Source: an uncultured Oscillibacter sp.
Lineage (GTDB): Bacteria > Bacillota > Clostridia > Oscillospirales > Oscillospiraceae
Assembly (NCBI GenBank): GCA_950097265.1
Contig: CATNDJ010000009.1
Coordinates: forward strand, 758-64,757
DNA length: 64,000 nucleotides
Direction of reading: 5' to 3'
The position numbers and the translations under genes are program-made. The notes under the pieces were generated by a model. It was given only the letters and a program-made list of their open reading frames with translations. It searched no databases and had not been told where the DNA came from. Numbering within the stretch: position 1 is the first letter of the stretch; each line of letters starts with the position of its first letter. Positions 1 through 64,000 of this stretch are shown in pieces.

Positions 1-655
1 GCACATCCATCATTCCGCCCAGGATCTCGCCGGAAAACTGGCAGGTGGAAACCGACCCCTCATAGGTCCTCTGGTTCCAGCGGCAGTCCATGCGGTAGGT
101 CCGCTCTTCGCCCCACTCGTTTTCCAGCGTGACTCCGTCGAAGTCCACGCCCGCCCCGCACTCCAGACGGAGCAGATGGCCCTCGTTCTCCACATAGAGA
201 TAGTTCGCATTTCCCACCGTCTCCTTCAAAACGATGGCCGTGTCCAACTGTTCGCTGACATAAGTACTGCAATACCAAATAGTCCCTAGAGTGGCCGCCA
301 GCATCAGCGTCAGAGCCAAGGCCGTCTGCCAGACGTGCTTCCGCCGCTCCGACTTCAGGTTTTCCCGGGAAATCTCCATCAAGTTCTGCACAGGCCGTTC
401 CTCTCTGATGTTCTCCACAATTTCTTCCTCCTCGTCCTTTTGTTCCAGCCTCCGGCAGGCCATCAGCTCCTCCACCCCCAGCCCCAGAGCCTCCGCCAGG
501 GGCTCCAGCAGGGTCACATCCGGGTAGCTCAAGGCCCGCTCCCATTTGCTTACCGCCTTGTCTGTCACATGGACCCGGGCCGCCAAATCCTTTTGCGTCA
601 GCCCGGCGGCCTTCCGGTTCTCGGCGATAAAATTTCCGAATTGCTGTTTGTTCAT
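1..655 (-). CDS. XRE-family HTH regulator with a transmembrane helix and C-terminal domain (runs off the window edge; missing from the ORF track)
   Basis: Manual translation from ATG 655 (SD GAGGTGA upstream): MNKQQFGNFIAENRKAAGLTQKDLAARVHVTDKAVSKWERALSYPDVTLLEPLAEALG (HTH_3 pattern), later VWQTALALTLMLAATLGTIWY (TM); frame stays open to position 2. Confidence 0.85.
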   Translation of the reverse strand, partial: MNKQQFGNFIAENRKAAGLTQKDLAARVHVTDKAVSKWERALSYPDVTLLEPLAEALGLGVEELMACRRLEQKDEEEEIVENIREERPVQNLMEISRENLKSERRKHVWQTALALTLMLAATLGTIWYCSTYVSEQLDTAIVLKETVGNANYLYVENEGHLLRLECGAGVDFDGVTLENEWGEERTYRMDCRWNQRTYEGSVSTCQFSGEILGGMMDV

Positions 656-784
656 GCGATTCACCTCCCCGTTAGTGTACACCAACGCCAAGGAAAAAAT
701 CAACCGACCAGCGGTAGAATCCGGCGAAACCCGTTGATTCCAGGCGTTTCCAGGATCGGGAAAATGCTTCCCCGGCTTCCAGTT

Positions 785-817
785 TTTAAGGTTGGGCTAA
801 GAAACCTCCTGTATGAT
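785..817 (+). promoter_or_regulatory. OmpR/CiaR-type direct repeat TTTAAG-N5-GCTAAG in place of a -35, 10 bp before -10 TATGAT
   Basis: tttaag(785-790) gttgg gctaag(796-801) aaacctcctg tatgat(812-817); no canonical -35. Confidence 0.55.
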
Positions 818-850
818 GCCCCCATCCTGTTCAACGAAAGGAGCCCAAGC

Positions 851-1522
851 ATGAAGCCTCGACACGAGTGGAAGCACGAGATTACCGCCGCCGACCGCCT
901 GGTCCTCGCCTCCCGCCTCTCCGCAATCGCCCGGCGGGACGTCCATGGGCAGAACGGCCGCTACGAGATACGCAGCCTGTATTTCGACGATCCCCGGGAC
1001 ACGGCCCTGCGGGAGAAAATCGACGGCGTGGCCAATCGGGAAAAATTCCGAATACGGTTTTATGGCGGCGACGCCTCTTACATCTGCCTGGAGAAAAAGA
1101 GCAAATGGGACGGCCTGTGCGGCAAGCGCTCCGTCCTCCTCAGCGCCCAGGAGGTCCAGGATCTCCTGAACGGCGACCTGGGCTGGATGCCGGACAGCGG
1201 CAGGCCCCTGGTCCAGGAGCTCTATTGGAAGATGAAATCCAACGTTCTACGGCCCAGGACCATTGTGGATTACACCCGGGACGCTTTCGTCTTCCCCGCC
1301 GGAAACGTGCGGGTCACCCTGGATTACAACATCCGTACCGGCCTGGGGTCCACGGATTTCCTGAATCCCGCTGCCGTCACCGTCCCCGCCGGGGCCGCTC
1401 CCAGCATTCTGGAGGTAAAGTGGGATGAATTTCTTCCCGATATCATCCGGGAAGCCGTGCAGCTTCCGGGGCGGCATACCTCCGCCTTTTCCAAATACGC
1501 GGCCTGCCGCATTTATGGATAA
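851..1522 (+). CDS. VTC-domain (polyphosphate polymerase / TTM-fold) protein
   Basis: SD AAAGGAG then ATG 851; motifs RHEWKH, IRSLYFDD, REKFRIRFY, LEKKSK, VDYTRDAF, VRVTLD, ILEVKWD, FSKY. The ORF-track extension to 335 is spurious. Confidence 0.9.
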   Translation: MKPRHEWKHEITAADRLVLASRLSAIARRDVHGQNGRYEIRSLYFDDPRDTALREKIDGVANREKFRIRFYGGDASYICLEKKSKWDGLCGKRSVLLSAQEVQDLLNGDLGWMPDSGRPLVQELYWKMKSNVLRPRTIVDYTRDAFVFPAGNVRVTLDYNIRTGLGSTDFLNPAAVTVPAGAAPSILEVKWDEFLPDIIREAVQLPGRHTSAFSKYAACRIYG

Positions 1523-1543
1523 CAGAGAAAGGAAACGATTATT

Positions 1544-2218
1544 ATGACTACTTTTCAGGACATCTTCAAATCCAGCTTTCTGGAGAACGTCACCAGCGTC
1601 AGCCTCCTGGACATGAGCCTGGCCCTTATCCTGGCCTTTGGCTTGGGGCTGTTCATCTTCCTGGTTTACAAGAAGACCTTCACCGGCGTCATGTACTCCT
1701 CCGGCTTCGGCGTGACCCTGGTGGCTTTGACCATGATTACCACCATGGTCATCCTGGCGGTCACCAGCAACGTGGTGCTGTCCCTGGGCATGGTGGGCGC
1801 GCTGTCCATCGTCCGCTTCCGCACCGCCATCAAGGAGCCCCTGGATATCGCCTTTCTCTTCTGGGCCATCGCCGTAGGCATCGTCCTGGCGGCGGGGCTG
1901 ATTCCGCTGGCGGTGTTCGGAAGCGTGGTCATCGGCCTGATGCTGCTGATCTTTGTCAACCGGAAGTCCCGCTGCGACCCCTACATCGCCGTCCTCCAGT
2001 GCGACGGCCAGGAGAGTGAGACCCGGGCGGCGGAGTTCCTCCGGCAGAACACCCGCCGCTGTGTGGTGAAGTGCAAGACCGTTCAAAAGGACGCGGTGGA
2101 ACTGAATCTGGAGATTCGCCTGAAGGATGAAAACACCGCCTTCATCAACGCCCTGGCAGACCTTCCCGGCGTCCGCAGCGCGGTGCTGGTGAGCTACAAC
2201 GGGGACTACATGGGGTGA
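1544..2218 (+). CDS. DUF4956 membrane protein (MgtC-like TM region plus C-terminal soluble domain)
   Basis: SLGMVGALSIVRFRTAIKEPLDIAFLFWAIAVGI hallmark; several TM helices. Confidence 0.9.
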   Translation: MTTFQDIFKSSFLENVTSVSLLDMSLALILAFGLGLFIFLVYKKTFTGVMYSSGFGVTLVALTMITTMVILAVTSNVVLSLGMVGALSIVRFRTAIKEPLDIAFLFWAIAVGIVLAAGLIPLAVFGSVVIGLMLLIFVNRKSRCDPYIAVLQCDGQESETRAAEFLRQNTRRCVVKCKTVQKDAVELNLEIRLKDENTAFINALADLPGVRSAVLVSYNGDYMG

Positions 2219-4047
2219 GCCCGATGTCGACTCACAAATACATCGATAAAGTCTGCGCCGCGGCCCTGGTCCTCTGCCTTTTGCTGACCGCCGCTTTTAT
2301 GCGCGGAGAAGCCCTGGGCATCCGGCCCGCCGCGTCGGTCATGGGCTACGAGACCCGGCTTTTTGACACGGGACAGGTGCATACCATCGACATCGTTATG
2401 GACAATTGGGACGGCTTCCTGGAGACCTGTGAAAACGAAGAATACGCCCAGTGCGCCGTGGTGATTGACGGCGAGGCATTCCAAAACACCGCCGTCCGGG
2501 CCAAAGGCAATACCTCCCTCTCCATGGTCTCCGCCATGGACAGCAGCCGCTACAGCTTCAAGCTGGAATTTGACCACTATGACAGCGGCAGGACTTACTA
2601 TGGCCTGGATAAACTGAGCCTGAATAATATCATACAGGACACCACCTATATGAAAGACTACCTCACCTATCAAATGATGGGGGCCTTTGGGGTGGACGCG
2701 CCGCTGTGCAGTTACGTTTACATCACGGTCAACGGCCAGGACTGGGGCCTGTATCTGGCGGTGGAAGGCGTGGAGGATGCGTTTCTCAGGCGAAACTACG
2801 GCGGTGATCCCGGTGAGCTCTACAAGCCGGACAGCATGAGCTTCGGCGGCGGACGGGGCAACGGCCGGGAATTTGACATGGAGAAATTCGTGAACTCCGA
2901 TGAGGAAGATACCCAAGGCCACTTTTCTCCCGACGGCGCGCCTCCCTCCCCGCCGGATGGCGAATCATTCAGGCAGAACAGTCCCGGAGAAGGGAAAAAA
3001 GGCGGCTTCGGCGGCGGGCCCGGAGGCGGTATGGGCGGCGACGATGTGAAACTCAGGTACATTGACAGCGACCCGGACAGCTATTCCAATATCTTTCAAA
3101 ATGCCAAAACGGACGTCAGCAAAGCGGACCAAACCCGGCTCATCGCCGCCCTGAAGGCCCTCAGCGAGGGCGAAAACCTGGAAAATGTCCTGGATATCGA
3201 CGAGGTTCTGCGCTATTTCGTGGTCCACAACTTTGTCCGCAACGGAGACAGCTATACCGGCTCCATGGTCCACAACTACTACCTCTACGAAGAGGACGGC
3301 CGGCTTTCCATGATTCCCTGGGATTACAACCTGTCCTACGGCACCTTCCAGGGCGGAAACGCGGGCAGCGAGGTCAATGCCCCCATCGACTCTCCTGTCA
3401 GCCGCGGAGACAGCCGCCCGATGGTGGATTGGATCTTTGACAGCCCAGAGTATACGGAGCTGTACCACCAGTACTTCCGGGAATTCCTGGAGACTGTGGA
3501 TCCGGCGGCGCTGATAGACGATGCGGCGGCGCTGATTGCCCCCTATGTGGAAAAGGACCCCACCTGGTTCTATACTTATGCAGAGTTTGAGACCGGCGTG
3601 GAGACCCTTCGGGAGTTCTGCCGCCTCCGGACGGAGAGCATTGCGGGACAACTGGACGGTCTCATCCCCTCTACAGAGGCCGGACAGGCGGCAGACGGCT
3701 CCGCCTTGGTGGACGCCTCTTCTATTACCCTCTCCGATATGGGCACGATGAATCGGAGCGGAGGCTTTGGAGGCGGCGGACCGCAGTTCTCTCCGACCGG
3801 CGGCAGTCCGGAAGAGCCAGGCTCCCCGCCTGACCAGGAGGGTGCGGACATACCGGCAATGGAGATCCCGCCCACAGAAGTTCTGCGGCAGGGATTCCCC
3901 GAGTGGCCCGGAGAAGGCTTCCGGGGATTTCCGGGTGAAGCCTCCTCCGCTGCAAACGGAAGCGCTTTGCTGCTAACGGCAGCGTGCCTGACCGTCCTCT
4001 TGGCAGGAATTATAACCGCCTTTTTCTACCGGCGCAGGAAAAGATAA
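2215..4047 (+). CDS. CotH-family atypical protein kinase, membrane anchored
   Basis: RAKGNTSL, SFKLEFD, KLSLNN, YLAVEGVE, LYKP, NGDSY, HNYYLY, IPWDYNLSYG; hydrophobic N-terminus and C-terminal TM plus RRRKR; GTGA overlap with the upstream stop (ATG 2224 is an alternative start). Confidence 0.9.
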   Translation: MSPMSTHKYIDKVCAAALVLCLLLTAAFMRGEALGIRPAASVMGYETRLFDTGQVHTIDIVMDNWDGFLETCENEEYAQCAVVIDGEAFQNTAVRAKGNTSLSMVSAMDSSRYSFKLEFDHYDSGRTYYGLDKLSLNNIIQDTTYMKDYLTYQMMGAFGVDAPLCSYVYITVNGQDWGLYLAVEGVEDAFLRRNYGGDPGELYKPDSMSFGGGRGNGREFDMEKFVNSDEEDTQGHFSPDGAPPSPPDGESFRQNSPGEGKKGGFGGGPGGGMGGDDVKLRYIDSDPDSYSNIFQNAKTDVSKADQTRLIAALKALSEGENLENVLDIDEVLRYFVVHNFVRNGDSYTGSMVHNYYLYEEDGRLSMIPWDYNLSYGTFQGGNAGSEVNAPIDSPVSRGDSRPMVDWIFDSPEYTELYHQYFREFLETVDPAALIDDAAALIAPYVEKDPTWFYTYAEFETGVETLREFCRLRTESIAGQLDGLIPSTEAGQAADGSALVDASSITLSDMGTMNRSGGFGGGGPQFSPTGGSPEEPGSPPDQEGADIPAMEIPPTEVLRQGFPEWPGEGFRGFPGEASSAANGSALLLTAACLTVLLAGIITAFFYRRRKR

Positions 4048-39243: not shown

Positions 39244-40440
39244 TCACGCAGTCCTCATTTCCTCCCAATACGCCCCGATGGCCCGGATATTTTCCTCTAG
39301 GGATTTGCTCTCGTCGTAGAGCTCGTTATCTGTCCAGTCCGCCAAATCGTCCTTGAACTCTGCGCCGGGACCGCCGGAGCGGAAGTTTCCGCCCTCCGTA
39401 GTCAGCAGCAGCTCGCTGTCCTTCAGGAGGCCGTGGACCTCCTCCAGAAAGGCGGCAATCTCCTCCGGCTCAAAGCGCTCGTGCAGTTCATTGAAGTTCA
39501 TGTCAAAGTTCACACTGCCCTCTCGGACCACCTGCTCTTCCCCGGCTCCATCCAGGTAAAAGAGCTCATATGTATAGGAGGCGTACCCCTGGTACATGGT
39601 GGGGAGATAGCGGAGCAGATAGTCCTCCCCCTCCACCCGGCAGGCGAAGCAGGAGTCCCAGCCCACGTGAGCCTCTACAAAGGAATCGCCCCAATAGAGG
39701 CGGTTGTCCGGCCTGCGGATCCGGAGCTCATACCAGCCCTCCAGATTCGGTTCCTCATCTTCGCCCACTGTCACCAGCTCTACGAGTTCCGGCTCCCCGT
39801 CGTGGTCAAAGTCATAACTCCCCGGCAGGGTCTCATGGCGCTCCTCCCAGACAATGCCGTTGAGCTTTCCCTCCCGCGCCTCTACGGCACAGATGTAAAA
39901 CCTCTGTTCTCCGGCGTCACCGCCCCGGCCGATGGTCAAATCCAAACTGCCCTCCGACTGCCACACACCCCAAGGCTCGTCCTCCGGCAGGAACGTATAT
40001 TCCGGGATAGGACTCCCGTCCGGCAGGGTGAAGTCCCACCTGCTCCAGTTCTCCGTCTCGAGGATGACAATGCCGCACCACGTCCGGGCACTGTAAGCCA
40101 AGGCCGCAAAACCTCCCTCCGGAGACCAGAGGATGGACTGCCAGGGCCAGCCCTGGTCCTGCCAAAGCACCTCCCCCGTCTCCCGGTCTATGATTTGCAG
40201 ATACTCCGGGGGCTGGACGCCGCTGACATAGTCGCCGCCGGCTCCCTGGGCCCTGGCCTCGAAGCGCCCATCCGGAGAAAGGGTCTCCCCTTCTATCTGA
40301 GCCACCGGCGTGGCGGCGATCAGCGCTTCATACGCGTCCGGCTCCTCCGCCGGAGCCTCTGTTTTTGCCGGAGGCTCCTCTGCCTGTCCGCAAGCCGCCA
40401 GCAGCAGCATCAGCGCCAAAACGTCCAGCAGTCTCTTCAT
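39244..40440 (-). CDS. Acidic lipoprotein of unknown function
   Basis: Lipobox LLAAC; DFDHDGEPE (DxDxDG Ca-binding-like loop); Trp-rich. Confidence 0.75.
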   Translation of the reverse strand: MKRLLDVLALMLLLAACGQAEEPPAKTEAPAEEPDAYEALIAATPVAQIEGETLSPDGRFEARAQGAGGDYVSGVQPPEYLQIIDRETGEVLWQDQGWPWQSILWSPEGGFAALAYSARTWCGIVILETENWSRWDFTLPDGSPIPEYTFLPEDEPWGVWQSEGSLDLTIGRGGDAGEQRFYICAVEAREGKLNGIVWEERHETLPGSYDFDHDGEPELVELVTVGEDEEPNLEGWYELRIRRPDNRLYWGDSFVEAHVGWDSCFACRVEGEDYLLRYLPTMYQGYASYTYELFYLDGAGEEQVVREGSVNFDMNFNELHERFEPEEIAAFLEEVHGLLKDSELLLTTEGGNFRSGGPGAEFKDDLADWTDNELYDESKSLEENIRAIGAYWEEMRTA

Positions 40441-49921: not shown

Positions 49922-50824
49922 TCAGTCCCAGGTGAGCCTGGGCCAGTCCTCCCACTCGGAGTTGACCGGCGCGACGTCCCGCTCGGCAACGGCAACCCAG
50001 TCGTGGAGCAGGAACTCATAACCCAGGCCGTTTTCGTCCCGGCAGAAGAAGGTCAGGGCCATCCGGTCTCCGGGCTCCGCCGCCGCGGACAGCTTGCCGC
50101 AGGAGTATTCGTCCAAGCGGTCTCCCGGCTCCGCCGCCTGCTCCGCCGCGATTTCGCCGTTTCGCCGGAGGCGGAACACCTGGCCCTCTGTCTCCAGAGT
50201 GCGGGCGGCGTAATTTTTCGTATACAGCTCCGCGCCGCATTCATATACGGTAAAGGCGCCTTTCAGATACTCCGCCTGGGTCCGCCCTCCCTGATAAGTA
50301 CACTGGACCGGCAGCAGCTCACCCGTGTCGTACACGCCGCCCAAGTTCTCCCGGCGCTGAGAACCGCCGTCCCCAATCAAGATATCCAAAGCAAATTCCA
50401 GCCGTCCCCTGTCCAAGGGAATCTCCAGCACGCCGGTAAACGTTCCCTTCCCGCCGCCGGAAAGGGGCGCGGAGCCCTCTCCTACCGTGCCGCCGTCCCC
50501 AGTCCACAGAAGCTCGGCGGCGGTGTCCTCCCGCCACTCCTTCAAGGACACGGATGCCTCCACCCGGAGGCTGCGGGAGGCCCGGTCAGGCTCGGCGGAA
50601 ATGATATCCCAATCCTGGACCAGCTTGTCCGCTTCCATCCCTGTCCGCTGGACGGCCTGGACCCGCTCGTCCAGCCGCCGCGTCTCCATTTGCAGATTGC
50701 TTTCCACGCTGCCAAGCTGATTCCGCAGGTCCGAAATTTGGCGGAGCTGCCAGAAATTCAGCCCCAGCAGAACGACGCAGAGAAGCAGCGTAAGGCTCTG
50801 TATCCGGTCTTTCTTTCCGTCCAT
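49922..50824 (-). CDS. Single-TM, coiled-coil hypothetical protein
   Basis: SD AAGGAG, ATG 50824; LTLLLCVVLLGLNFW then a heptad-rich stretch. Confidence 0.7.
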   Translation of the reverse strand: MDGKKDRIQSLTLLLCVVLLGLNFWQLRQISDLRNQLGSVESNLQMETRRLDERVQAVQRTGMEADKLVQDWDIISAEPDRASRSLRVEASVSLKEWREDTAAELLWTGDGGTVGEGSAPLSGGGKGTFTGVLEIPLDRGRLEFALDILIGDGGSQRRENLGGVYDTGELLPVQCTYQGGRTQAEYLKGAFTVYECGAELYTKNYAARTLETEGQVFRLRRNGEIAAEQAAEPGDRLDEYSCGKLSAAAEPGDRMALTFFCRDENGLGYEFLLHDWVAVAERDVAPVNSEWEDWPRLTWD

Positions 50825-50834
50825 ATGCTTCTCC

Positions 50835-51641
50835 TTAGAATCCAAAGGCCCGAAGGGCGATGACTCCCGCCAGGATCAGCACCCCCAGCGTCAGGGCGAT
50901 GTAGTCCCGGCGCTCGTATTTCAGAACGTGGAGCTTCGTCCGCCCCTCCCCGCCGTGGTAGCAGCGGCACTCCATGGCCGTGGCCAGCTCGTCCGCCCGG
51001 CGGAAGGCGCTGATGAACAGCGGCACCAGAATGGGCACCAGGGCCTTGGCCTTCTCCATCAGGTTCCCGCTCTCAAAGTCCGCACCCCGGGCCTTCTGGG
51101 CGGACATAATCTTGTCCGTCTCCTCAATCAGGGTCGGGATGAACCGCAGGGCGATGGACATGATCATAGTCAGCTCGTGGACCGGCACGTGGAAGCGCTT
51201 CAGGCCGTTCAGCAGCCGTTCCAGGCCGTCGGTGAGGCTGATGGGGCTGGTGGTATAGGTCATGAGGAAGGTGCCCATGATGAGGAGCATGATGCGCAGC
51301 ACCATAAAGGCGGCGTTCCGCAGACCCGTGCTGGTGATATGGAGGGGCCCCCAGGCCCAGAGAACCCCCTCGCCGGGGGTGAAGAACAGGTTCAAAAGGC
51401 CGGTGAAGACGATGATGAACAGCACCGGCTTCAGGCCCCGTACCAGGGCCTTCAATCCCACTTTGGAAACGCGGACGCAAGCCGCCAGCACCAGGGCCAT
51501 CAAACCGTAGGCCAGAAAGCTTCCGGCGGTAAACAGGGCCGTGATATACAGCACCACCAGCAGAATCTTCGTCCTGGGGTCCAGCTTGTGGGCCACGGTA
51601 TTTCCTGGGAAATACTGACCCAGGGTGATGTCTTTTAACAT
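50835..51641 (-). CDS. ecfT: ECF transporter T component
   Basis: LDPRTK, IALRFIPTL, AQKARG, AMECRCY. Confidence 0.95.
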   Translation of the reverse strand: MLKDITLGQYFPGNTVAHKLDPRTKILLVVLYITALFTAGSFLAYGLMALVLAACVRVSKVGLKALVRGLKPVLFIIVFTGLLNLFFTPGEGVLWAWGPLHITSTGLRNAAFMVLRIMLLIMGTFLMTYTTSPISLTDGLERLLNGLKRFHVPVHELTMIMSIALRFIPTLIEETDKIMSAQKARGADFESGNLMEKAKALVPILVPLFISAFRRADELATAMECRCYHGGEGRTKLHVLKYERRDYIALTLGVLILAGVIALRAFGF

Positions 51642-54446: not shown

Positions 54447-54794
54447 ATGGAACTGGAAAAAAGCCTGGTCAGTGGGAGCATGTCCCTGCTGGTGCTGAAG
54501 CTGCTGGAGGACGGGGACCTGTACGGCTACCAGATGATCGCGGAGCTCCGGCGGCGGAGCGAGGACGCCTTCCGCCTGAAAGCGGGGACCCTCTATCCCC
54601 TGCTCCACAGTCTGGAGGAAAAGGGCCTGGTCACCGCCTATGAGCGGACGGCGGAGTCCGGCAAGGCCCGGCGTTACTACCATCTGACAAAACAGGGGTG
54701 GGACGCCCTGCGGGAGAAGGAGAGCGCCTGGAACGCTTATGCCCGGGCCGTGGGCCGGGTGCTGAAAGGGGGCGCGTGCCTTGCCGGAGCGTAA
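54447..54794 (+). CDS. PadR-family transcriptional regulator
   Basis: LYGYQMI, GTLYPLLHSLE..GLV, RRYYHLT..G. Confidence 0.95.
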   Translation: MELEKSLVSGSMSLLVLKLLEDGDLYGYQMIAELRRRSEDAFRLKAGTLYPLLHSLEEKGLVTAYERTAESGKARRYYHLTKQGWDALREKESAWNAYARAVGRVLKGGACLAGA

Positions 54795-56151
54795 GACCAT
54801 CGCCGCCTGGCTGGAGGCGGTACAGGAGCAGATTCGCTGGAAGCGGGCCCGGCCTGTTCTGATTCAGGAGCTGGCGCGGCACCTGGAGGATCAGCGGGAT
54901 GACTTGCTTAAAGAGGGCAAGGACCCGGAGGAGGCGGAGCGGCTGGCGGTGGAGGACATGGGGGACCCGGTAGAGGTTGGGACCGAGCTGGACCGGGTGC
55001 ACCGCCCCCGGCCCCAGTGGGGGCTGTTGGGACTGACCTTCGTCCTGGCGGCCATAGGGGCTTTCCTGCGGGTGGAGTTCCTCCAAGCAAGCCCCTACCC
55101 CAGCAGGGAGCAGGTGTTGGTGAAAACCCTGGCCTCCCTAGCCACCCTGGGGCTGGGCACGGCGCTGATGATGGGCGCGTATTTTCTCGACGTTTCCCGG
55201 CTGGTCCGGCACGCTCGGACCGTGTACATTGGAACGCTGGCAATGACGGTTCTGCTCCTCCTGTATCCCACCTATTACAACGCCCTCATGACAACGCTTT
55301 ATCCCCTTGTCTATGCCCTCTGGCTCTACAGCTTCCGGAACAGGGGCTGGAAAGGATTTTTACTTACCATTTTAGGCGGTATTCCTCTGGCGGTGAGCTG
55401 CGCCGTCATCCCCGCTATGTCAGGTCTTTCAGTGCTGCTGTTCTCCGGCCTGGCGCTGACGCTCTACGCGGCGGGGCGGGACTGGTTCGGTGTCGGCAAA
55501 TTGAAGGGCGCCGGCGCAACTCTGGCCGTTGTTTTCGGTTTCCTGGCCTATCTCCTCTTCATGGGCTATCTCAATTCCTTCCTGCTTCGAGTGGTGATCG
55601 CCCTCCGCCCGGAGCTGGAACGGGAACACCGGGGCTATATGGGCTGGATGCTTCAAACGTTCTGGGCGGACGTTCCCCCTCTGCGGCGCGTCAGCGGCGA
55701 GGCCGCCCTGTCGGTCAACGCGGGAGCGCGGGTCTTCGGCGCGGGCCAGGAGATGCGGCCCATCGACTTCTCCCATGACTTCCTCCCCGCCTCCATGGCG
55801 GTGGCCTGGGGCTGGGTCCCCCTGCTGGCCCTGCTGGCGGCGCTGGGGGTTCTGCTCCTCTGGCTGCTGGTGAAGGGCCTGCGGCAAAGCTATCTGCCGG
55901 GGCGCTTCGTGGTCCTGGCGGTGGTCCTGACTTTGGGACTTCAGACGCTGTTCAGCGCGGCGCTGAATTTCGGCTTTGTGCTCTTCTCCGCCAGCCTGCC
56001 CCTGGTGGTGGGGAACTTCCAGACGGTCGTCGACATGGCCCTCATCGGCCTAGCTCTGTCGGTGTTCCGTGGGGACTCCATCGCCCGGGAGGAGCCCGCC
56101 GGGCCCCTCCGCCCCCGCAAGCGGCTGCGGGTAAAGTTCGAGTACCAATGA
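54781..56151 (+). CDS. HAAS / permease-prefix domain fused to a degenerate FtsW/RodA/SpoVE (SEDS) domain
   Basis: ELARHLED...G..PEEAERLAVEDMGDP.EVG.EL (HAAS); GY..W...., SHDFL, LGLQTLFS..NFG, LPL remnants of SEDS motifs. Confidence 0.8.
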   Translation: MPERKTIAAWLEAVQEQIRWKRARPVLIQELARHLEDQRDDLLKEGKDPEEAERLAVEDMGDPVEVGTELDRVHRPRPQWGLLGLTFVLAAIGAFLRVEFLQASPYPSREQVLVKTLASLATLGLGTALMMGAYFLDVSRLVRHARTVYIGTLAMTVLLLLYPTYYNALMTTLYPLVYALWLYSFRNRGWKGFLLTILGGIPLAVSCAVIPAMSGLSVLLFSGLALTLYAAGRDWFGVGKLKGAGATLAVVFGFLAYLLFMGYLNSFLLRVVIALRPELEREHRGYMGWMLQTFWADVPPLRRVSGEAALSVNAGARVFGAGQEMRPIDFSHDFLPASMAVAWGWVPLLALLAALGVLLLWLLVKGLRQSYLPGRFVVLAVVLTLGLQTLFSAALNFGFVLFSASLPLVVGNFQTVVDMALIGLALSVFRGDSIAREEPAGPLRPRKRLRVKFEYQ

Positions 56152-58793: not shown

Positions 58794-58832
58794 AAGCGTC
58801 CCCCGGCGGTTCTTCGCCGGGGGACGGCTTTT
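58794..58832. terminator. Convergent terminator
   Basis: gtcccccggcg / cgccgggggac stem. Confidence 0.8.
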
Positions 58833-59649
58833 ACTTCCGCTTCACGGGATAGCAGACCTCGGTAACGAACTCGTCGGGATTCCGGGTCTCGTGGGGGCTG
58901 ACGTGGTAGATGAAGAAGGAAGCCCCGTCAAAGGCCCAGCCGTTGTCCTCCACCCAGGCGGCCACGGCCTCGTTCACCGCGGGAATCTGGTCGTAGCTTC
59001 CCAGACAGGTGGCGGAGGCCACCTGTACCGCCGGGACGGTCTTGAACTTCACGTGTTCCGTGTCGGGGTAGGTTCCCGCCACGCTTTTCTGGATTTCTAC
59101 GTCCACGTCCCGCTCCTTGAACTCGCCGTCGTGGTAAACCGCGGCGCACAGAGCCGGGTCCCCATCCTGGATGTTCATCCGGGCGGTCTCCTGGCAGTAG
59201 ATGCTCCACAGGGCGCCCTCGTGGTCATAGGAAGGGATTACCTGGCGCACGCTGGCCACCTGCCGCTCCGGCAGGGTCTTGATGGTCACGTCGTATTTCA
59301 TTTTGTCCTTGTCCTTTCTTAGGCGTTCCAGGGCCGTGTCCAGCAGCCGCAAACGCCTCTGCGCCTCCTCCATGACCTCCCGGGCCTCAGCCCGCTGCAG
59401 CAGCAGGCAGCGCTCCAGCGCCCTGGGGTCGTCGTAGCAGTCCAGCACCTCCCGGACGGCCGCCAGAGGGAAGCCCATGTCCCGGAGGGCCCGGATGCGG
59501 TTGGCGGTTGGAAGCTGGCGCTCGCTGTAGTAGCGGTAGCCGGTGAAGGGGTCGATGGACGCCGGGGCCAGAAGCCCGGCCTCGTCGTAGCGGCGCAGGG
59601 AGCGGATGCTGACTCTGGAGAGCCTGGAAAATTCGCCGATTTTCAGCAT
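58831..59649 (-). CDS. MerR-family regulator with a GyrI-like effector domain (BmrR/BltR-like)
   Basis: MLKIGEFSRL..VSIRSLRRYDEAGLL.PA.IDPFTGYRYY; C-terminal GyrI-like domain. Confidence 0.92.
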   Translation of the reverse strand: MLKIGEFSRLSRVSIRSLRRYDEAGLLAPASIDPFTGYRYYSERQLPTANRIRALRDMGFPLAAVREVLDCYDDPRALERCLLLQRAEAREVMEEAQRRLRLLDTALERLRKDKDKMKYDVTIKTLPERQVASVRQVIPSYDHEGALWSIYCQETARMNIQDGDPALCAAVYHDGEFKERDVDVEIQKSVAGTYPDTEHVKFKTVPAVQVASATCLGSYDQIPAVNEAVAAWVEDNGWAFDGASFFIYHVSPHETRNPDEFVTEVCYPVKRK

Positions 59650-59690
59650 AGCGGTACCTCCACAACGTTGTGAATCTTGAGCTCAGAAAC

Positions 59691-59721
59691 AGGATAAGCC
59701 CTCCCCCCGGGGGAGAGTCAA
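59691..59721 (-). promoter_or_regulatory. MerR-type promoter with a 19-bp spacer and dyad
   Basis: TTGACT-ctcccccggggggagggct-TATCCT; dyad CTCCCC-N3-GGGGAG inside the 19-bp spacer. Confidence 0.75.
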
Positions 59722-59755
59722 GAGGAAATTCTGAAAAATTCATATACCGTATATC

Positions 59756-59784
59756 TTGCATATTTTTTCCCGTTGTGCTATACT
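59756..59784 (+). promoter_or_regulatory. sigmaA promoter of the OLE RNA
   Basis: TTGCAT-17-TATACT, ending about 7 nt before the 5' closing-stem strand. Confidence 0.75.
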
Positions 59785-59791
59785 GTTTTCC

Positions 59792-60448
59792 GCTAAGCGG
59801 CGGCGCAGTATTCTAGTCAGATCTGCCGTTTCCTAGGGAGGGCCTAAAAATCCTCTGAAGGGCACATCGATGAAACCCGTGGTGCCTGCTTGATACGCCC
59901 AGTTTTGGGTGGGTGCTGGGGGGAAGCGCGTGGAATTTGCGCGCTTGCGGACTCAGGGCGTCTACCAATGGCATGGTCTATCCGACCCTGTTTCCGTGGA
60001 GACCTGTTCTTGTGCGCGGACGTACTCCCATCGTGGTATTTCCGGCCCGCGTACGAAACAGATTGTGAACCTGCAATGCGGTGCATCGGTCCCTCGGGGC
60101 CGTAACGCTGTGTGCAGCCGTAGCCTGCCTTGAGTGGGGCGGGTGGATCAGGGAACTACAGGAAGAAGCCCCGGCCAGGGCGGCTTCCTGATCGCCCTTT
60201 GAAACCCGTTTTGCAAAAGAGGCTAAAGAAGCGGACGGACTGTGGTGGAAATCACCTAGGCTGTCCTGACGGGGCAGGAAAAGGATTGCAGTGCGGACTA
60301 AGTGGCAATCGGGTAGCACGGACGGGCGACGCCGCGCCGGAGCGCCGAACGGGAAACCGCCCCCATCGGCAACGAGGGGTGCGCTCCGGGGAAATCCAAC
60401 CCGTACCTAAGCCGTAAGATTTACTTTTTCTGCCGCCGCCGGCTTAGC
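59792..60448 (+). ncRNA. ole: OLE RNA (ornate, large, extremophilic RNA)
   Basis: About 657 nt with no credible ORF; 5' GCUAAGCGGCGGC pairs with 3' GCCGCC..GCUUAGC; blocks I recall from OLE RNAs (AGUAUUCUAGUCAG, GGGCCUAAAAAUCC, GGGCACAUCGAUGAA, UGCAGUGCGGACUAAGUGG); directly upstream of oapA-dxs-tlyA-nadK. Confidence 0.88.
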
Positions 60449-60491
60449 TCTAAAAAAACAGAGGCCGTCTCCGGCCTTTCGGGAGGTTCCT

Positions 60492-61034
60492 TTGAAGAAA
60501 CAGCAGAAGGGAAAGGCCCCTTCCCCATATCGTTGGGCCCTTACGGTCTTTTTGATGGCGGTGGTCCTCTCCGCCGTGCTGAGTCTGGCGTCGGAGTCGA
60601 TGCTGGAGGGCGCGGGCGTGACCGCCGCCCTTTTGATGTTGGCGCTGTTTATCGGCCTGGGCATCGTGTTCGACATCATAGGCGTAGCCGTCACGGCGGC
60701 GGACCCCAAGCCCTTTCACGCCATGGCCTCCCATAAAGAAAAAGGGGCCAAACAGTCCCTCATGCTGCTGCGGAACGCCGGACGTGTCTCCAGCGTCTGT
60801 AACGACGTGGTGGGGGACATCTGCGGCATTGTCAGCGGCGCCACGGGAGCGGTAATCGTCACCCAGCTCCAGCGGGCGCTGAACCTGCGGACCGTGCTGA
60901 TCTCCGTGGCCGTCACGGCCCTGGTGTCCGGCCTGACCATCGGCGGCAAGGCCCTGGGCAAGACGGTGGCTATTAAGAAAAGCACCCAGGTGGTCTACTG
61001 GGCCGGACGGTTTTTGTACTTGTTCCATCATTGA
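60492..61034 (+). CDS. oapA: OLE-associated protein A
   Basis: GIVFDIIGVAVTAA, PFHAMA, VSSVCNDVVGDICGIVSG, LTIGGKALGK; four TM segments. Confidence 0.88.
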   Translation: MKKQQKGKAPSPYRWALTVFLMAVVLSAVLSLASESMLEGAGVTAALLMLALFIGLGIVFDIIGVAVTAADPKPFHAMASHKEKGAKQSLMLLRNAGRVSSVCNDVVGDICGIVSGATGAVIVTQLQRALNLRTVLISVAVTALVSGLTIGGKALGKTVAIKKSTQVVYWAGRFLYLFHH

Positions 61035-61045
61035 GAGGAGAAGCT

Positions 61046-62905
61046 ATGCTTTTGGATTCCATCCACTCTCCCGCCGACGTCCGGGCGCTGCCGGAGGGCC
61101 AGCTCCCCCAGCTCTGCCAGGAGCTGAGGGAGTTTCTTGTAAAAAGCGTCTCTCAGACCGGGGGCCACCTGGCCTCCAACCTGGGGGCGGTGGAGCTGAC
61201 GGTGGCCATCCACCGGGTCTTCGACACGGAGCGGGACCGGCTGGTCTTTGACGTAGGCCACCAGTGCTACGTCCACAAGATTTTGACGGGCCGCCGGGAG
61301 CGGTTCGATACCCTCCGGCAACTGGACGGCCTCTCCGGCTTTCCCAAGCCCGGGGAGAGCAAAGATCACGACGCCTTCATTGCCGGGCACGCCTCCAACT
61401 CCGTCTCCGTGGCCTTAGGGATGGCACGGGCGCGCTCCCTCCAAGGGAAGGACTACAGCGTCCTGGCCCTCATCGGCGACGGGGCCCTCACCGGGGGCCT
61501 GGCCTACGAGGGGCTGAACAATGCCGGGGCCTCCGGCGAGCCCTTGATCGTAATTCTGAACGACAACGGCATGTCCATTAACCCCAACGTAGGGGCCATG
61601 CCCTCCCACCTGGCCCGGCTTCGGTCCCGCCCCGGGTACTACCATTTTAAGAAGTGGTACCGGAACCTCTTCGGGTCCCGGCCCATGAAGAATCCTCTTT
61701 ACCGTTTCAGCCACAAGGTCAAGACCTTTTTGAAGCGGAGCCTTTTCCCTGGCAGCACCCTCTTTGAAGATATGGGCTTCACCTACCTGGGCCCCGTGGA
61801 CGGCCACGACCTCCCCCGGCTCTGCGACGCGCTGCGCTGGGCCCGGGAGCTGAACGGACCCGTGGTGGTCCACGTGAACACCGTCAAGGGCAAGGGCTGT
61901 TCCTTCGCAGAGCGGAACCCGGACATGTATCACGGCGTGGGTCCCTTTGACCCGGAAACCGGCCTTTTGAAAAAAGCAGGAGGGGAGAGTTTTTCCTCCG
62001 TCTTCGGCAGGGCCCTGGCGGACTTCGCCCGGGAGGACTCCCGGGTCTGCGCCATCACCGCCGCCATGGCCGACGGCACGGGCCTTTCCGGCTTTGCCAA
62101 GTCCTTCCCGGACCGCTTTTTCGACGTGGGCATCGCCGAGGGCCACGGCGTCTCTATGGCGGCGGGCATGGCAGCCAAGGGGCTGCTGCCGGTCTTCGCC
62201 GTGTACTCGACCTTTTTGCAAAGAGGATATGACATGCTGATCCACGACGTGGCCCTGGAAAATCTCCATGTGGTCCTGGGCGTGGACCGGGCGGGCCTGG
62301 TGGGGGCCGACGGCGAAACCCACCACGGCTGCTTCGACCCACTGTTCCTGTCGTCCCTGCCGGGCTATACCGTCCTCTGCCCCGCCAGTTTCGCGGAGCT
62401 GCGGCACATGCTGCGGCGGGCTCTCTTCGAGCTGACCGGCCCCGTGGCGGTCCGCTACCCCAAGGGGGGAGAGGGCGCCTATCGGGACGACGCCTCGGAC
62501 AAACCTCTGGTCCGCCTCCGGGCGGGGCGGGACGTGACCCTGCTGACCTATGGCGTGCTGGTGAACCAGGCCCTGGAGGCGGCAGAGCTTTTAGAAAAGA
62601 AGGGCATCCAGGCGGAAGTCCTGAAGCTGAATCAAATCGCCCCCCTGGACGGGGAGGTCTTCCGGAACTTCCTGGAGAGGACGGAGGTCCTGCTGGTGCT
62701 GGAAGACTGCTTCGGCGCGGGCTGCGTAGGCCAGCGGGCGGCCGCCATTCTGGCGGGAGAGGGCCGGGTCCCGAGGAAGCTGATTTTAAAGAACCTGGGC
62801 CGGACCTTCGCCCCAGAGGGCAGCGTCCCTCAGCTGGAGGAGCGGTTCGGCCTGGACGCCGCCGCCGTGGCCGCGGCGGCGGAGGAGGTTTGCCATGAGC
62901 GATAA
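61046..62905 (+). CDS. dxs: 1-deoxy-D-xylulose-5-phosphate synthase
   Basis: GGHLASNLG, DVGHQCY.HK, GDGALTGG, LNDNGMSI, DVGIAEGH, DRAGLVG.DG.TH. Confidence 0.97.
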   Translation: MLLDSIHSPADVRALPEGQLPQLCQELREFLVKSVSQTGGHLASNLGAVELTVAIHRVFDTERDRLVFDVGHQCYVHKILTGRRERFDTLRQLDGLSGFPKPGESKDHDAFIAGHASNSVSVALGMARARSLQGKDYSVLALIGDGALTGGLAYEGLNNAGASGEPLIVILNDNGMSINPNVGAMPSHLARLRSRPGYYHFKKWYRNLFGSRPMKNPLYRFSHKVKTFLKRSLFPGSTLFEDMGFTYLGPVDGHDLPRLCDALRWARELNGPVVVHVNTVKGKGCSFAERNPDMYHGVGPFDPETGLLKKAGGESFSSVFGRALADFAREDSRVCAITAAMADGTGLSGFAKSFPDRFFDVGIAEGHGVSMAAGMAAKGLLPVFAVYSTFLQRGYDMLIHDVALENLHVVLGVDRAGLVGADGETHHGCFDPLFLSSLPGYTVLCPASFAELRHMLRRALFELTGPVAVRYPKGGEGAYRDDASDKPLVRLRAGRDVTLLTYGVLVNQALEAAELLEKKGIQAEVLKLNQIAPLDGEVFRNFLERTEVLLVLEDCFGAGCVGQRAAAILAGEGRVPRKLILKNLGRTFAPEGSVPQLEERFGLDAAAVAAAAEEVCHER

Positions 62906-63722
62906 GCTGAGGCTGGACGTGCTTTTGGTGGAGCGGGGCCTGGAGGAAAGCCGCCAGCGGGCCCAAGCCGTCATCATGAGCGGGCAGGTATTCGTAGACG
63001 GCCGCCGGGCGGACAAGCCCGGCATGGCGGTGCCTGCCGCTGCCGCCGTAGAAATTCGCGGAGACAAGCTCCCCTATGTCAGCCGGGGCGGGCTGAAGCT
63101 GGAAAAGGCCATGAAGACCTTTCCCATCCGCCTTCAGGGGGCCGTCTGCGCCGACGTCGGGGCCTCCACCGGGGGCTTCACCGACTGCATGCTGCAAAGC
63201 GGCGCGGCCAGGGTCTACGCCGTGGACGTGGGCCGGGGCCAGCTGGCCTGGAAGCTGCGCAGCGACCCCCGGGTGGTCTGCCTGGAGCGGACCAACGCCC
63301 GGTATCTCAGCCGGGAGCAGGTGCCGGAGGAGCTGGCCTTCGCCTCCGTAGATGTGAGCTTCATCTCTTTGAAGCTGATTCTCCCTCCCCTGGCGGCCCT
63401 GCTGAAAGAGGGCGGCCAGGTGGTCTCCCTGGTGAAGCCCCAGTTTGAGGCGGGCCGGGAAAAGGTCGGGAAGAAAGGCGTGGTCCGGGACCCCGCCGTC
63501 CATCTGGAGGTCCTGGAGCGCTGGCTGGTCCACGCCGGGGAGGCGGGGTTGACAGTGCTGGGCCTGACCTACTCCCCCATCCGGGGGCCGGAAGGGAACA
63601 TCGAGTACCTGGGCTTCCTGCAAAAAGGAGGCGGGACCGCCCCGGAACCGGATTTAAAGGCCCTGGTGGAGGAATCCCACCAGGCGCTGAAGGAACACGA
63701 AGAGGGGGAAAATGCCCTATGA
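62895..63722 (+). CDS. TlyA/YqxC-family RNA methyltransferase
   Basis: RLDVLLV, YVSRGGLKL, DVGASTGGFTD, DVSFISL, LVKPQFE, GPEGNIEY. Confidence 0.95.
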   Translation: MSDKLRLDVLLVERGLEESRQRAQAVIMSGQVFVDGRRADKPGMAVPAAAAVEIRGDKLPYVSRGGLKLEKAMKTFPIRLQGAVCADVGASTGGFTDCMLQSGAARVYAVDVGRGQLAWKLRSDPRVVCLERTNARYLSREQVPEELAFASVDVSFISLKLILPPLAALLKEGGQVVSLVKPQFEAGREKVGKKGVVRDPAVHLEVLERWLVHAGEAGLTVLGLTYSPIRGPEGNIEYLGFLQKGGGTAPEPDLKALVEESHQALKEHEEGENAL

Positions 63723-64000
63723 GCCCCAAAAAAATCATTCTGTGCCCCAATCCCAACCGGGATCAGGGGATGAAGACCACCCGGGCGGCGGAGGCCATTC
63801 TTCGCGGCCTGGGCTTCCAGACGGTGGTCTGCTCTCCCTTCCGGGACCGGAAGGAAGGGGCCTTCGCCGACTACGACGTGCTGCCCCTGCCTCAGGAGCT
63901 CCGGGGGGCCGACCTGCTGATTACCTTCGGCGGGGACGGAACCATCCTGCACCTTGCCAAGCTGGCGGCGCTTCACAAGATGCCGGTGCTGGGCGTGAAC
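63719..64000 (+). CDS. nadK: NAD(+) kinase, N-terminal part (runs off the window edge)
   Basis: ATG 63719 overlapping the tlyA stop; ITFGGDGTIL, PVLGVN. Confidence 0.85.
   Translation, partial: MSPKKIILCPNPNRDQGMKTTRAAEAILRGLGFQTVVCSPFRDRKEGAFADYDVLPLPQELRGADLLITFGGDGTILHLAKLAALHKMPVLGVN

Follow-up and report, generated by a model that had tools for sequence, protein, structure and literature searches.

Background

OLE RNAs, a class of structured non-coding RNAs described in 2006, are typically about 600 nt long in their full-length form and lie immediately upstream of the gene oapA. The present analysis concerns a copy of this RNA, together with its oapA gene, in a 64-kb stretch of DNA (hereafter the window) from an uncultured Oscillibacter sp., contig CATNDJ010000009.1. 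The copy had been proposed in an earlier, model-made reading of the sequence alone (the original prediction).

In the alkaliphile Halalkalibacterium halodurans (H. halodurans) a single polycistronic transcript contains the RNA (PMC12265935), and its ribonucleoprotein contains OapA, OapB, OapC and the ribosomal protein bS21. Cryo-electron microscopy (cryo-EM) has yielded two structures, both of RNAs from mesophilic bacteria, namely Clostridium acetobutylicum and C. botulinum (PMC12265935). OLE RNAs were found in 2,822 Bacillota genomes, uncultured gut clades included, in a 2024 survey (PMC11332333), and a full-length type was distinguished from variants 1 and 2 by Fernando & Breaker 2024 (PMC11332333). 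OapA is distantly related to the MpfA-type transporters; the functions of the two overlap, and their distributions are anticorrelated (PMC12265935, PMC11332333).

The window copy agrees with the full-length Rfam type (PMC11332333) in its helices P1 to P15, in the conserved loops of P4, P5.1, P6.1 and P9, in the GNRA loops of P13 and P14.1, in its Bacillota host and in its gene order, oapA following immediately and dxs, tlyA and nadK thereafter. With the H. halodurans complex it shares the RNA architecture, the OapA aspartates and the k-turn and OapB determinants. The four dimerisation elements of the C. acetobutylicum and C. botulinum dimers (PMC12286853, PMC12265935) and the strands of their k-turn are conserved in sequence here, and the clostridial P3 is similar in length to that of the window. 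Differences were also found. The window RNA, at 657 nt, exceeds the typical length by virtue of a hairpin in J5/6 and of longer P7 and P8 tips, whereas the C. acetobutylicum RNA measures 577 nt and is devoid of that hairpin. The window locus and its closest relatives use a promoter of their own, without the ispA and xseA genes that typically lie upstream; this conserved promoter stands directly in front of the RNA, unlike the arrangement in H. halodurans, and the host is an anaerobic gut mesophile rather than an alkaliphile. OapA matches the transmembrane domain of the MpfA/CorC/CNNM transporters but, at 180 amino acids, lacks their CBS pair and CorC domain.

Identification and extent of the RNA

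The entire window was scanned against Rfam 15, and a single match was obtained, to the OLE model RF01071, at 59784-60455 of the forward strand (393.2 bits, E 5e-112). The match spans model positions 1-616 of 616 and lies far above the gathering threshold of 50 bits, so that the covariance-model search suggested as a check by the original prediction bears out its call of an OLE RNA with oapA. Measured between the outer ends of its closing stem, the RNA, of the full-length type, occupies 59792-60448 (+). This is exactly 657 nt, the size that had been given for the non-coding structured region, and the long stem said to close it is formed by 59792-59804 with 60435-60448 (13 bp, one bulged G).

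Relatives of OapA were sought in one genome per GTDB species; the best 80 of the 562 confirmed loci, to which L-numbers (L001, L011, L076 etc.) were assigned as labels, were used for comparison. The closest OapA among them is 98% identical. An OLE homologue directly precedes oapA in all 80 loci, and is full-length in 72, being cut by contig ends in the others. The 80 loci bear the names Oscillibacter, Dysosmobacter, Vescimonas and Oscillospiraceae, or simply 'Clostridia/Clostridiales/Bacillota bacterium', and most are metagenome-assembled genomes from mouse, human, chicken or ruminant gut. OLE hosts are Bacillota, typically anaerobes or extremophiles, and the Oscillospiraceae relatives place the window host among them. 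The guanine-plus-cytosine (GC) content is about 60% for the RNA and 61.4% for the window; with the gut Oscillibacter/Dysosmobacter relatives and the mouse-gut RNA runs described below, this agrees with the high-GC gut clostridium that had been supposed. The RNA is 96.7% identical to that of L002 and 94.8% to that of L001, whereas for Dxs and TlyA the identity to these two loci reaches only 85-90%, which indicates that the source is a related yet distinct species.

On this evidence, and on that given in the following sections, the locus very probably encodes a functional full-length OLE RNA, heading the gene cluster ole-oapA-dxs-tlyA-nadK of a mouse-gut bacterium of the Oscillospiraceae that resembles Oscillibacter and Dysosmobacter.

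Conservation of the secondary structure

The 72 full-length copies were aligned with that of the window (73 sequences, 735 columns). Mean column identity is 76%, and about one third of the positions are invariant among sequences differing by up to 32%. Base-pairing was counted over the Rfam structure, the closing stem and one extra hairpin, for a total of 177 pairs in 22 helices: 88.0% of the cells are paired, versus 38-50% in controls in which the 3' partners were slid by 1-3 columns. Changes on both sides were found in 100 of the 177 pairs, and none of 500 shuffles matched any of the five measures observed. Throughout the clade, compensatory changes preserve the OLE helices. Transfer of the model structure line to the window copy gives 156 pairs, 16 of them non-canonical.

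Two of the helices are missing from the Rfam structure. The closing stem (P1/P2), left unpaired there, is 78.6% paired in the 73 sequences, with compensatory changes at six of its 13 pairs. P3, which joins domain 1 to domain 2 (59822-59832 with 60228-60239, 11 bp and one bulged A), is 93.6% paired, and compensatory at 8 of 11 pairs. The P2 sub-helices adjoining it are invariant, and P3 and P2, examined in a separate test, are 97% paired. P3, about 12 bp long, has been proposed to be a membrane-spanning stem (PMC12265935).

Within domain 1, the P4 hairpin (59837-59856) carries an A-rich loop, CUAAAAAU, invariant in all 73 sequences, which forms dimerisation centre 1 in the cryo-EM models (PMC12265935). 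The J4a/5 segment UCGAUGAAA follows at 59867-59875; its residues C85, U88, G89, A90 and A91 are the same in every member of the clade, and in H. halodurans it provides the bulged strand of the OapC-binding k-turn (PMC9723947, PMC12286853). P5/P5.1, located by the Rfam alignment at 59876-59922 with loop ACGCCCAGU, is 92.3% paired; the GCCCA of its loop, the kissing-loop partner of P6.1, does not vary in the clade. The same holds for the loop of P6/P6.1 (59949-60002, including J6/7), which reads CAAUGGCAUG, with the P6.1 loop AAUGGCAU constant throughout, and for J6/7 itself (GUGGAGA, 59996-60002), the non-bulged k-turn strand of the cryo-EM model (PMC12286853). With regard to the predicted binding of OapA, palindromic segments are present in the window RNA near P2 (CUAG, AGAUCU) and at P4a (CAUCGAUG).

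P7 (60003-60061) and P8 (60071-60117), whose tips exceed the Rfam consensus by 16 and 18 nt, are 85% and 92% paired, respectively. An additional hairpin of about 20 nt follows P7 in L064, L072 and L075 (alignment columns 298-318). The long arm P9 (60127-60223 in the Rfam alignment) ends in an invariant palindromic GGCC loop, identified as dimerisation centre 4 (PMC12265935); its basal helices are 93-96% paired, while its distal part is poorly aligned.

Domain 2 (P10-P15, 60245-60434) comprises helices 17-22 of the set, which are 78-100% paired and include many compensatory pairs. OapB binding requires a GNRA loop plus a bulge (PMC7936274), and these determinants are found, according to the Rfam alignment, in P13 (60316-60337), with a GCGA tetraloop at 60326-60329 and bulged nucleotides below it, and in the GCAA tetraloop of P14.1 (60369-60372). 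All the near-invariant OLE blocks, that is the P4, P5.1, P6.1 and P9 loops and J6/7, are thus present in the window copy, as are the conserved joining regions of domain 2. Since P7, P8 and a long P9 are present, and the P13 tip keeps the OapB site, the RNA was assigned to the full-length type, and not to variant 1 or 2.

Promoter and upstream region

A promoter is found at 59756-59784 (+), where the original prediction had placed one, with the -35 box TTGCAT (59756-59761), a 17-nt spacer and the extended -10 box TGCTATACT (59776-59784). The generic promoter scan of the window did not report it, its boxes scoring 3/6 and 5/6, below the rule of the scan; it was retained because its position is conserved across relatives. 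In about 70 of the 72 relatives TTGyAT or TTGnAA is followed, after 16-17 nt, by TGnTAtAcT; P1 starts 6-8 nt downstream of this arrangement, and the sequence of the spacer varies.

The gene on the other side of the promoter is not shared. In the window it is a divergent MerR/GyrI-like regulator, recognised by Pfam (58831-59649, minus strand), which lies upstream of OLE in none of the 80 related loci, so that synteny breaks directly upstream of the RNA. A D-Ala-D-Ala carboxypeptidase and a pseudouridine synthase occupy the place in L001, and the canonical nusB-xseA-ispA in L011 and L073. As the promoter is conserved and the gene upstream is not, the promoter belongs to ole.

The sequence remains conserved for about 40 nt beyond the -35 box. 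An AT-rich element at 59734-59755 (+), conserved in most of the 72 relatives, consists of the A-tract AAAAATT and of the palindrome CATATAC-C-GTATATC. The window element reads AAAAATT-CATATACCGTATATC, and palindromic TGTATATAC/GAATAT motifs appear in the relatives. When the alignment is anchored on the -10 box, the consensus is aaaaatt.aca..tt.taTatac.gaAtat.TTGtATATTtat, the conserved columns running from about -75 to -35. No second copy of the palindrome occurs in the 64-kb window. It may act as an UP element of a strong promoter, as an operator, or as both.

Transcript abundance

Sequencing runs were sampled with the 31-mers of a 1401-nt stretch, 47% of which is OLE. Between 34 and 47% of these 31-mers occur in each of 23 runs; 18 of these are listed as RNA, and the RNA runs are labelled mouse gut metagenome. 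Four mouse-gut metatranscriptomes from different studies, containing 36-41%, were mapped on 59400-61400. Depth was taken from assembler contigs; such values are strandless, and over conserved segments they pool closely related strains.

Contig depth is zero from 59400 to about 59800, except for one low-depth contig in run X3, and rises over OLE (59802-60451) to between 4x10^4 and 8x10^5 in three runs, and to between 5x10^2 and 3x10^4 in the fourth. Over oapA and dxs it is 0-440 in the four runs, and past the hairpin of the OLE-oapA spacer it is about 1000-fold lower. At a likeness of at least 96%, coverage extends from 59804 to 60448-60451; nothing covers 60452-60469, and from 60475 onward the depth is about 50-126. 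The first 12 nt of the RNA are missing from these contigs, probably as a result of strain differences rather than as the true 5' end. The distal part of P9 (60137-60203) shows a depth of 5x10^3 to 2x10^5 at a likeness of at least 93%, in spite of its poor conservation, which indicates that the window OLE itself, or a near-identical copy, is highly expressed. The favoured reading is that OLE accumulates in gut metatranscriptomes as a discrete, very abundant RNA of about 650 nt; a transcript of this size had been named beforehand as a check, and a discrete and very deep block over OLE is seen in all four data sets.

Two further observations concern these runs. Four of the RNA runs that contain OLE are oligo-dT libraries, and a run of seven A residues (A7) lies 3' of the closing stem, at 60452-60458; internal priming on it, or on the A-rich P4 loop, may explain the depth of OLE in libraries of this type. 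A low-depth contig of run X2 (depth 40) passes directly from 60014 to 60120 and again from 60148 to 60281, so that P7/P8 and most of P9 are absent from it; it may represent either a chimera assembled across recurring conserved words or a shorter variant present in another strain.

A hairpin inserted in J5/6

The window RNA is about 55 nt longer than the Rfam model, owing to three insertions, one of 22 nt separating P5 from P6 and two, of 16 and 18 nt, at the tips of P7 and P8, respectively. The first of these forms a hairpin at 59924-59946 (+), AAGCGCGU-GGAAUUU-GCGCGCUU, which has no counterpart in the Rfam consensus, the only reference with which it was compared. The hairpin is present in all 73 sequences of the clade, 86.1% paired and with compensatory changes at 7 of 8 pairs; the sequence and the length of its loop vary freely.

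In order to see how widely the insertion occurs, 120 metagenome loci were fetched by the P4-J4a motif, and the spacing of the P5.1 and P6.1 loops was measured. The distribution is bimodal, with 34 loci at 40-43 nt and about 60 at 55-104 nt. At the short distance J5/6 reads UUAAGG, as in the consensus, while the long-distance RNAs carry an inserted hairpin. Twelve sampled loci were all recognised as OLE by Rfam: those without the insert score 442-526 bits over 607-641 nt, those with it 363-418 bits over 663-819 nt. The J5/6 hairpin is therefore a trait of a large, mostly gut-derived OLE subclass, and not of the window locus alone.

Some OLE copies stand apart. Inserts much longer than the others are found in L050 and L059, among the related loci, and the metagenome contig L098 carries, at 789-1607, an 819-nt OLE with a P5.1-P6.1 spacing of 104 nt, versus 40-43 nt without insert. 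Several AT-rich metagenome loci, with a GC fraction of about 0.31-0.35 (L086, L089, L100, L109, L118, L129 and others), match the P4-J4a motif. The P5.1 and P6.1 anchors were not found in most AT-rich metagenome loci; L145, L160 and L168 have both, at normal spacing. A short OLE of 550 nt (325 bits) lies at 139-688 of L086, and may be a reduced variant of the kind described for the RF39/TANB77 clades.

The position of the hairpin bears on the k-turn. The OapC-bound k-turn was proposed by Lyon et al. 2022 to be made of J4a/5 and J5/6 (PMC9723947), while in the 2025 cryo-EM model J4a/5 pairs with J6/7 (PMC12286853). In the sequences with an insert, J5/6 has received 20 to 80 nt, and a G-C replaces the A-A needed by the first model. 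Such a hairpin would fit the cryo-EM arrangement, and J4a/5 and J6/7 stay invariant; covariation cannot decide between the two models, because there is variation at position 84 of J4a/5 but none in J6/7. A conversion of the k-turn by the hairpin into a three-way 'k-junction' was also considered, and was dropped since the cryo-EM k-turn uses J6/7 (PMC12286853). A wider proposal, in which the hairpin would mark a large Oscillospiraceae-type subclass, would be evidence from natural variation for the J4a/5-J6/7 k-turn and, taken with the dedicated strong promoter and its palindrome, would point to an independently regulated, extremely abundant OLE with a clade-specific partner or regulator, is tentative and on balance doubtful.

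More specifically, the particle of this clade might depart from the H. halodurans paradigm, the hairpin docking a clade-specific partner or replacing OapC, and the promoter with its palindrome serving a specific transcription factor. The covariation of the hairpin in all 73 sequences and its presence in a large group of gut metagenome OLEs are what such a departure would predict, and so is the conservation reaching about 40 nt beyond the -35 box. Moreover, neither oapB (ybzG, KOW) nor oapC (ybxF, L7Ae family) was found by Pfam among the 48 of 63 plausible open reading frames (ORFs) of the window that were scanned. However, it is only the stem of the hairpin that is conserved, its loop being free, so that a structural spacer fits better than a specific binding site; the invariant J4a/5 and J6/7 strands suggest that an OapC-type binding is retained, and the upstream element could be the plain UP element of a strong promoter. 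A departure of this kind is judged unlikely.

oapA, the spacer and the downstream genes

The 43-nt spacer between OLE and oapA contains the A7 run, a hairpin and a ribosome-binding site. The hairpin, AGAGGCCG-UCUC-CGGCCUUU (60460-60479, plus strand, 8 bp, -13.6 kcal/mol), comes after the A7 run, and terminator-like sites are listed there by the scan on both strands. It is a weak terminator at best, because its 3' U residues belong to the stem. The hairpin is not conserved either: spacers range from 22 to 2380 nt in the relatives, and many are hairpin-free. Most likely, oapA-dxs-tlyA-nadK is expressed by read-through from the OLE promoter past this weak hairpin, in which case the thousand-fold excess of OLE would reflect the stability of the RNA, with or without partial termination and processing. 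Spacers of 200-700 nt were found in L007, L008, L031, L040, L055 and L068. In L076 an ORF of 769 amino acids (1607-3916) is interposed between OLE and oapA; it gives only a weak match to a solute-binding-protein family, SBP_bac_8 (25.8 bits), below the cut-off.

The same region raises the question whether the structured segment might be a cis-acting leader, a giant riboswitch or attenuator controlling oapA-dxs-tlyA-nadK, instead of a stable RNA acting in trans. OLE does stand at the 5' end of the operon, sharing with oapA the sole recognisable promoter; a hairpin separates the two, and the depth over oapA is far below that over OLE, as expected if most transcripts stop. A regulatory terminator is, however, poorly compatible with the weakness and variability of the hairpin just described. 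Furthermore, in L011 and L073 OLE is not at the start of an operon, lying inside a longer cluster behind ispA; its very high contig depth is typical of a stable product, and in H. halodurans OLE acts in a membrane ribonucleoprotein complex (PMC12265935). A leader function is thus highly improbable.

oapA extends from 60492 to 61034 (+), its TTG start codon lying five nt after the ribosome-binding site GGGAGG, and encodes 180 amino acids, with the motif NDVVGD at residues 104-109. The protein matches Pfam CNNM at 29.4 bits, barely over the cut-off of 28.4, as a CNNM-type transmembrane domain with no other domain; no NCBIfam model matches it. Hydropathy indicates four hydrophobic segments (about 15-35, 42-68, 105-124 and 132-155) and a basic C-terminus. 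Among 41 relatives of 36-60% identity only D61, D105, G108, D109, S115, G116, K153 and K157 are invariant, and D105 and D109 are also invariant in 24 close relatives; both aspartates of the motif are therefore in place, as the original prediction had stated. We take this NDxxGD pair to be the residues changed in the PM1 mutant. PM1, which is dominant-negative, alters two strictly conserved aspartates of OapA (PMC7936274).

When 1.84 billion cluster representatives were searched, 1155 proved to be related to OapA at E<=1e-3, and for 870 of them the E-value was 1e-10 or lower. Among the matches listed, the best 150 are 92-296 amino acids long, and are thus transmembrane-only proteins. Close relatives carry the name 'CNNM domain-containing protein'.

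The genes dxs, tlyA and nadK, expected downstream, were all recognised. dxs, encoding 1-deoxy-D-xylulose-5-phosphate synthase, lies at 61046-62905 (+; Pfam DXP_synthase_N, 381.7 bits, plus transketolase domains) and is syntenic in 79 of the 80 loci. The tlyA-type rRNA methyltransferase gene (62895-63722, plus strand; Pfam S4 and FtsJ) is syntenic in 74. The N-terminus of nadK (63719-64000, plus strand) is cut by the end of the window, leaving a fragment of 93 amino acids with weak matches to NCBIfam NAD kinase models (best E 6.7e-9).

Possible function and standing of the annotation

By analogy with the systems studied in H. halodurans and clostridia, two OLE RNAs would dimerise through the A-rich P4 loop, the kissing loops of P5.1 and P6.1 and the GGCC loop of P9. 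OapA, as a four-helix CNNM-type protein with conserved aspartates, would anchor the RNA at the membrane, and domain 1, which is globular, would be connected to domain 2 by the 11-bp P3, perhaps through the bilayer. Such a particle would assist the cell under stress linked to divalent cations (Mg2+/Mn2+), short-chain alcohols, cold and poor carbon sources, with the RNA probably taking the regulatory role that the CBS and CorC domains have in the all-protein MpfA transporters. Such a role would plausibly suit a gut anaerobe, which makes and meets short-chain fatty acids and alcohols.

The idea that the window copy is decaying or has lost its function, or that it matches the model by chance or through low complexity, deserves practically no credence: its score of 393 bits is lower than that of insert-free OLEs (442-526 bits) and 16 of its 156 model pairs are non-canonical, but the match is full-length with an E of 5e-112, the lower score is explained by three insertions common to the whole clade, about a third of the positions are invariant in 73 sequences that differ by up to 32%, compensatory changes keep the helices, and expression is very high.

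Several points weigh against a functional OLE particle of the known kind at this locus. Membrane localisation, dimer formation, OapA binding and phenotypes would all be carried over here from H. halodurans and clostridia. The Pfam scan of 48 of the 63 window ORFs revealed no oapB or oapC, both of them essential in H. halodurans. The AlphaFold2 model of OapA, built with 27 close homologues, has a mean pLDDT (per-residue confidence score) of 48 and was not used for a fold search, and neither protein nor profile sequence search gave a meaningful match to OapA in the PDB. As to the transcript, contig depth pools strains and is strandless, and the ends of OLE are resolved only within about 10-15 nt. 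The miss of oapB and oapC says little, because the partner genes are unlinked to ole in the model species; moreover, OapB occurs in only about 60%, and OapC in about 45%, of OLE-bearing species (PMC11332333). Nor was mpfA, or any transporter combining CNNM and CBS domains, found by Pfam among the 48 of 63 window ORFs scanned.

The finding is the correct annotation of an already known element. That the class is known had been said from the start, and is confirmed by the curated Rfam model and the 2,822 genomes surveyed (PMC11332333). The accompanying summary of established knowledge, a membrane ribonucleoprotein with OapA, OapB and OapC whose loss causes sensitivity to cold, alcohol and Mg2+, is dated, since neither the RNA dimer nor the transmembrane model is mentioned in it, nor are the links to carbon source and Mn2+, nor bS21. 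The hope of a new opportunity, namely useful covariation and a non-extremophile model, was not sustained, as structures from mesophiles and a broad survey already exist.

In practice, a non-coding RNA feature, OLE RNA, should be added at 59792-60448 (+), and 'CNNM domain-containing protein' renamed oapA. The gain for the field is small. Few sequences of mouse-gut metatranscriptomes are covered as deeply as the full-length OLEs that gut Oscillospiraceae are confirmed to carry; the subclass with the J5/6 hairpin and the private conserved promoter are small refinements. Cultured relatives (Dysosmobacter, Neopoerus faecalis, Bengtsoniella intestinalis) allow study in a gut anaerobe, a role that mesophilic clostridia already fill.

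Other features of the window

The other window ORFs among the 48 scanned are those of an ordinary chromosomal stretch. They include a VTC/DUF4956/CotH cluster, yebC, a NIF3-family gene, trmK, a sigma factor gene, glmM, ruvABC, a tyrosine recombinase gene, yajC and dnaE, as well as ECF transporter genes, truA, a Clp ATPase gene, fakA, asd and a SpoIID-domain gene. In the first of these groups (335-4047, plus strand) genes for a VTC domain, DUF4956 and a CotH kinase are adjacent, forming a polyphosphate-related trio that has no connection with OLE. Three sizeable ORFs with a coding-type GC content at third codon positions gave no Pfam match: 39244-40440 (-), 49922-50845 (-) and 54781-56151 (+). 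The last encodes a very hydrophobic protein of 456 amino acids, and lies downstream of a PadR regulator gene.

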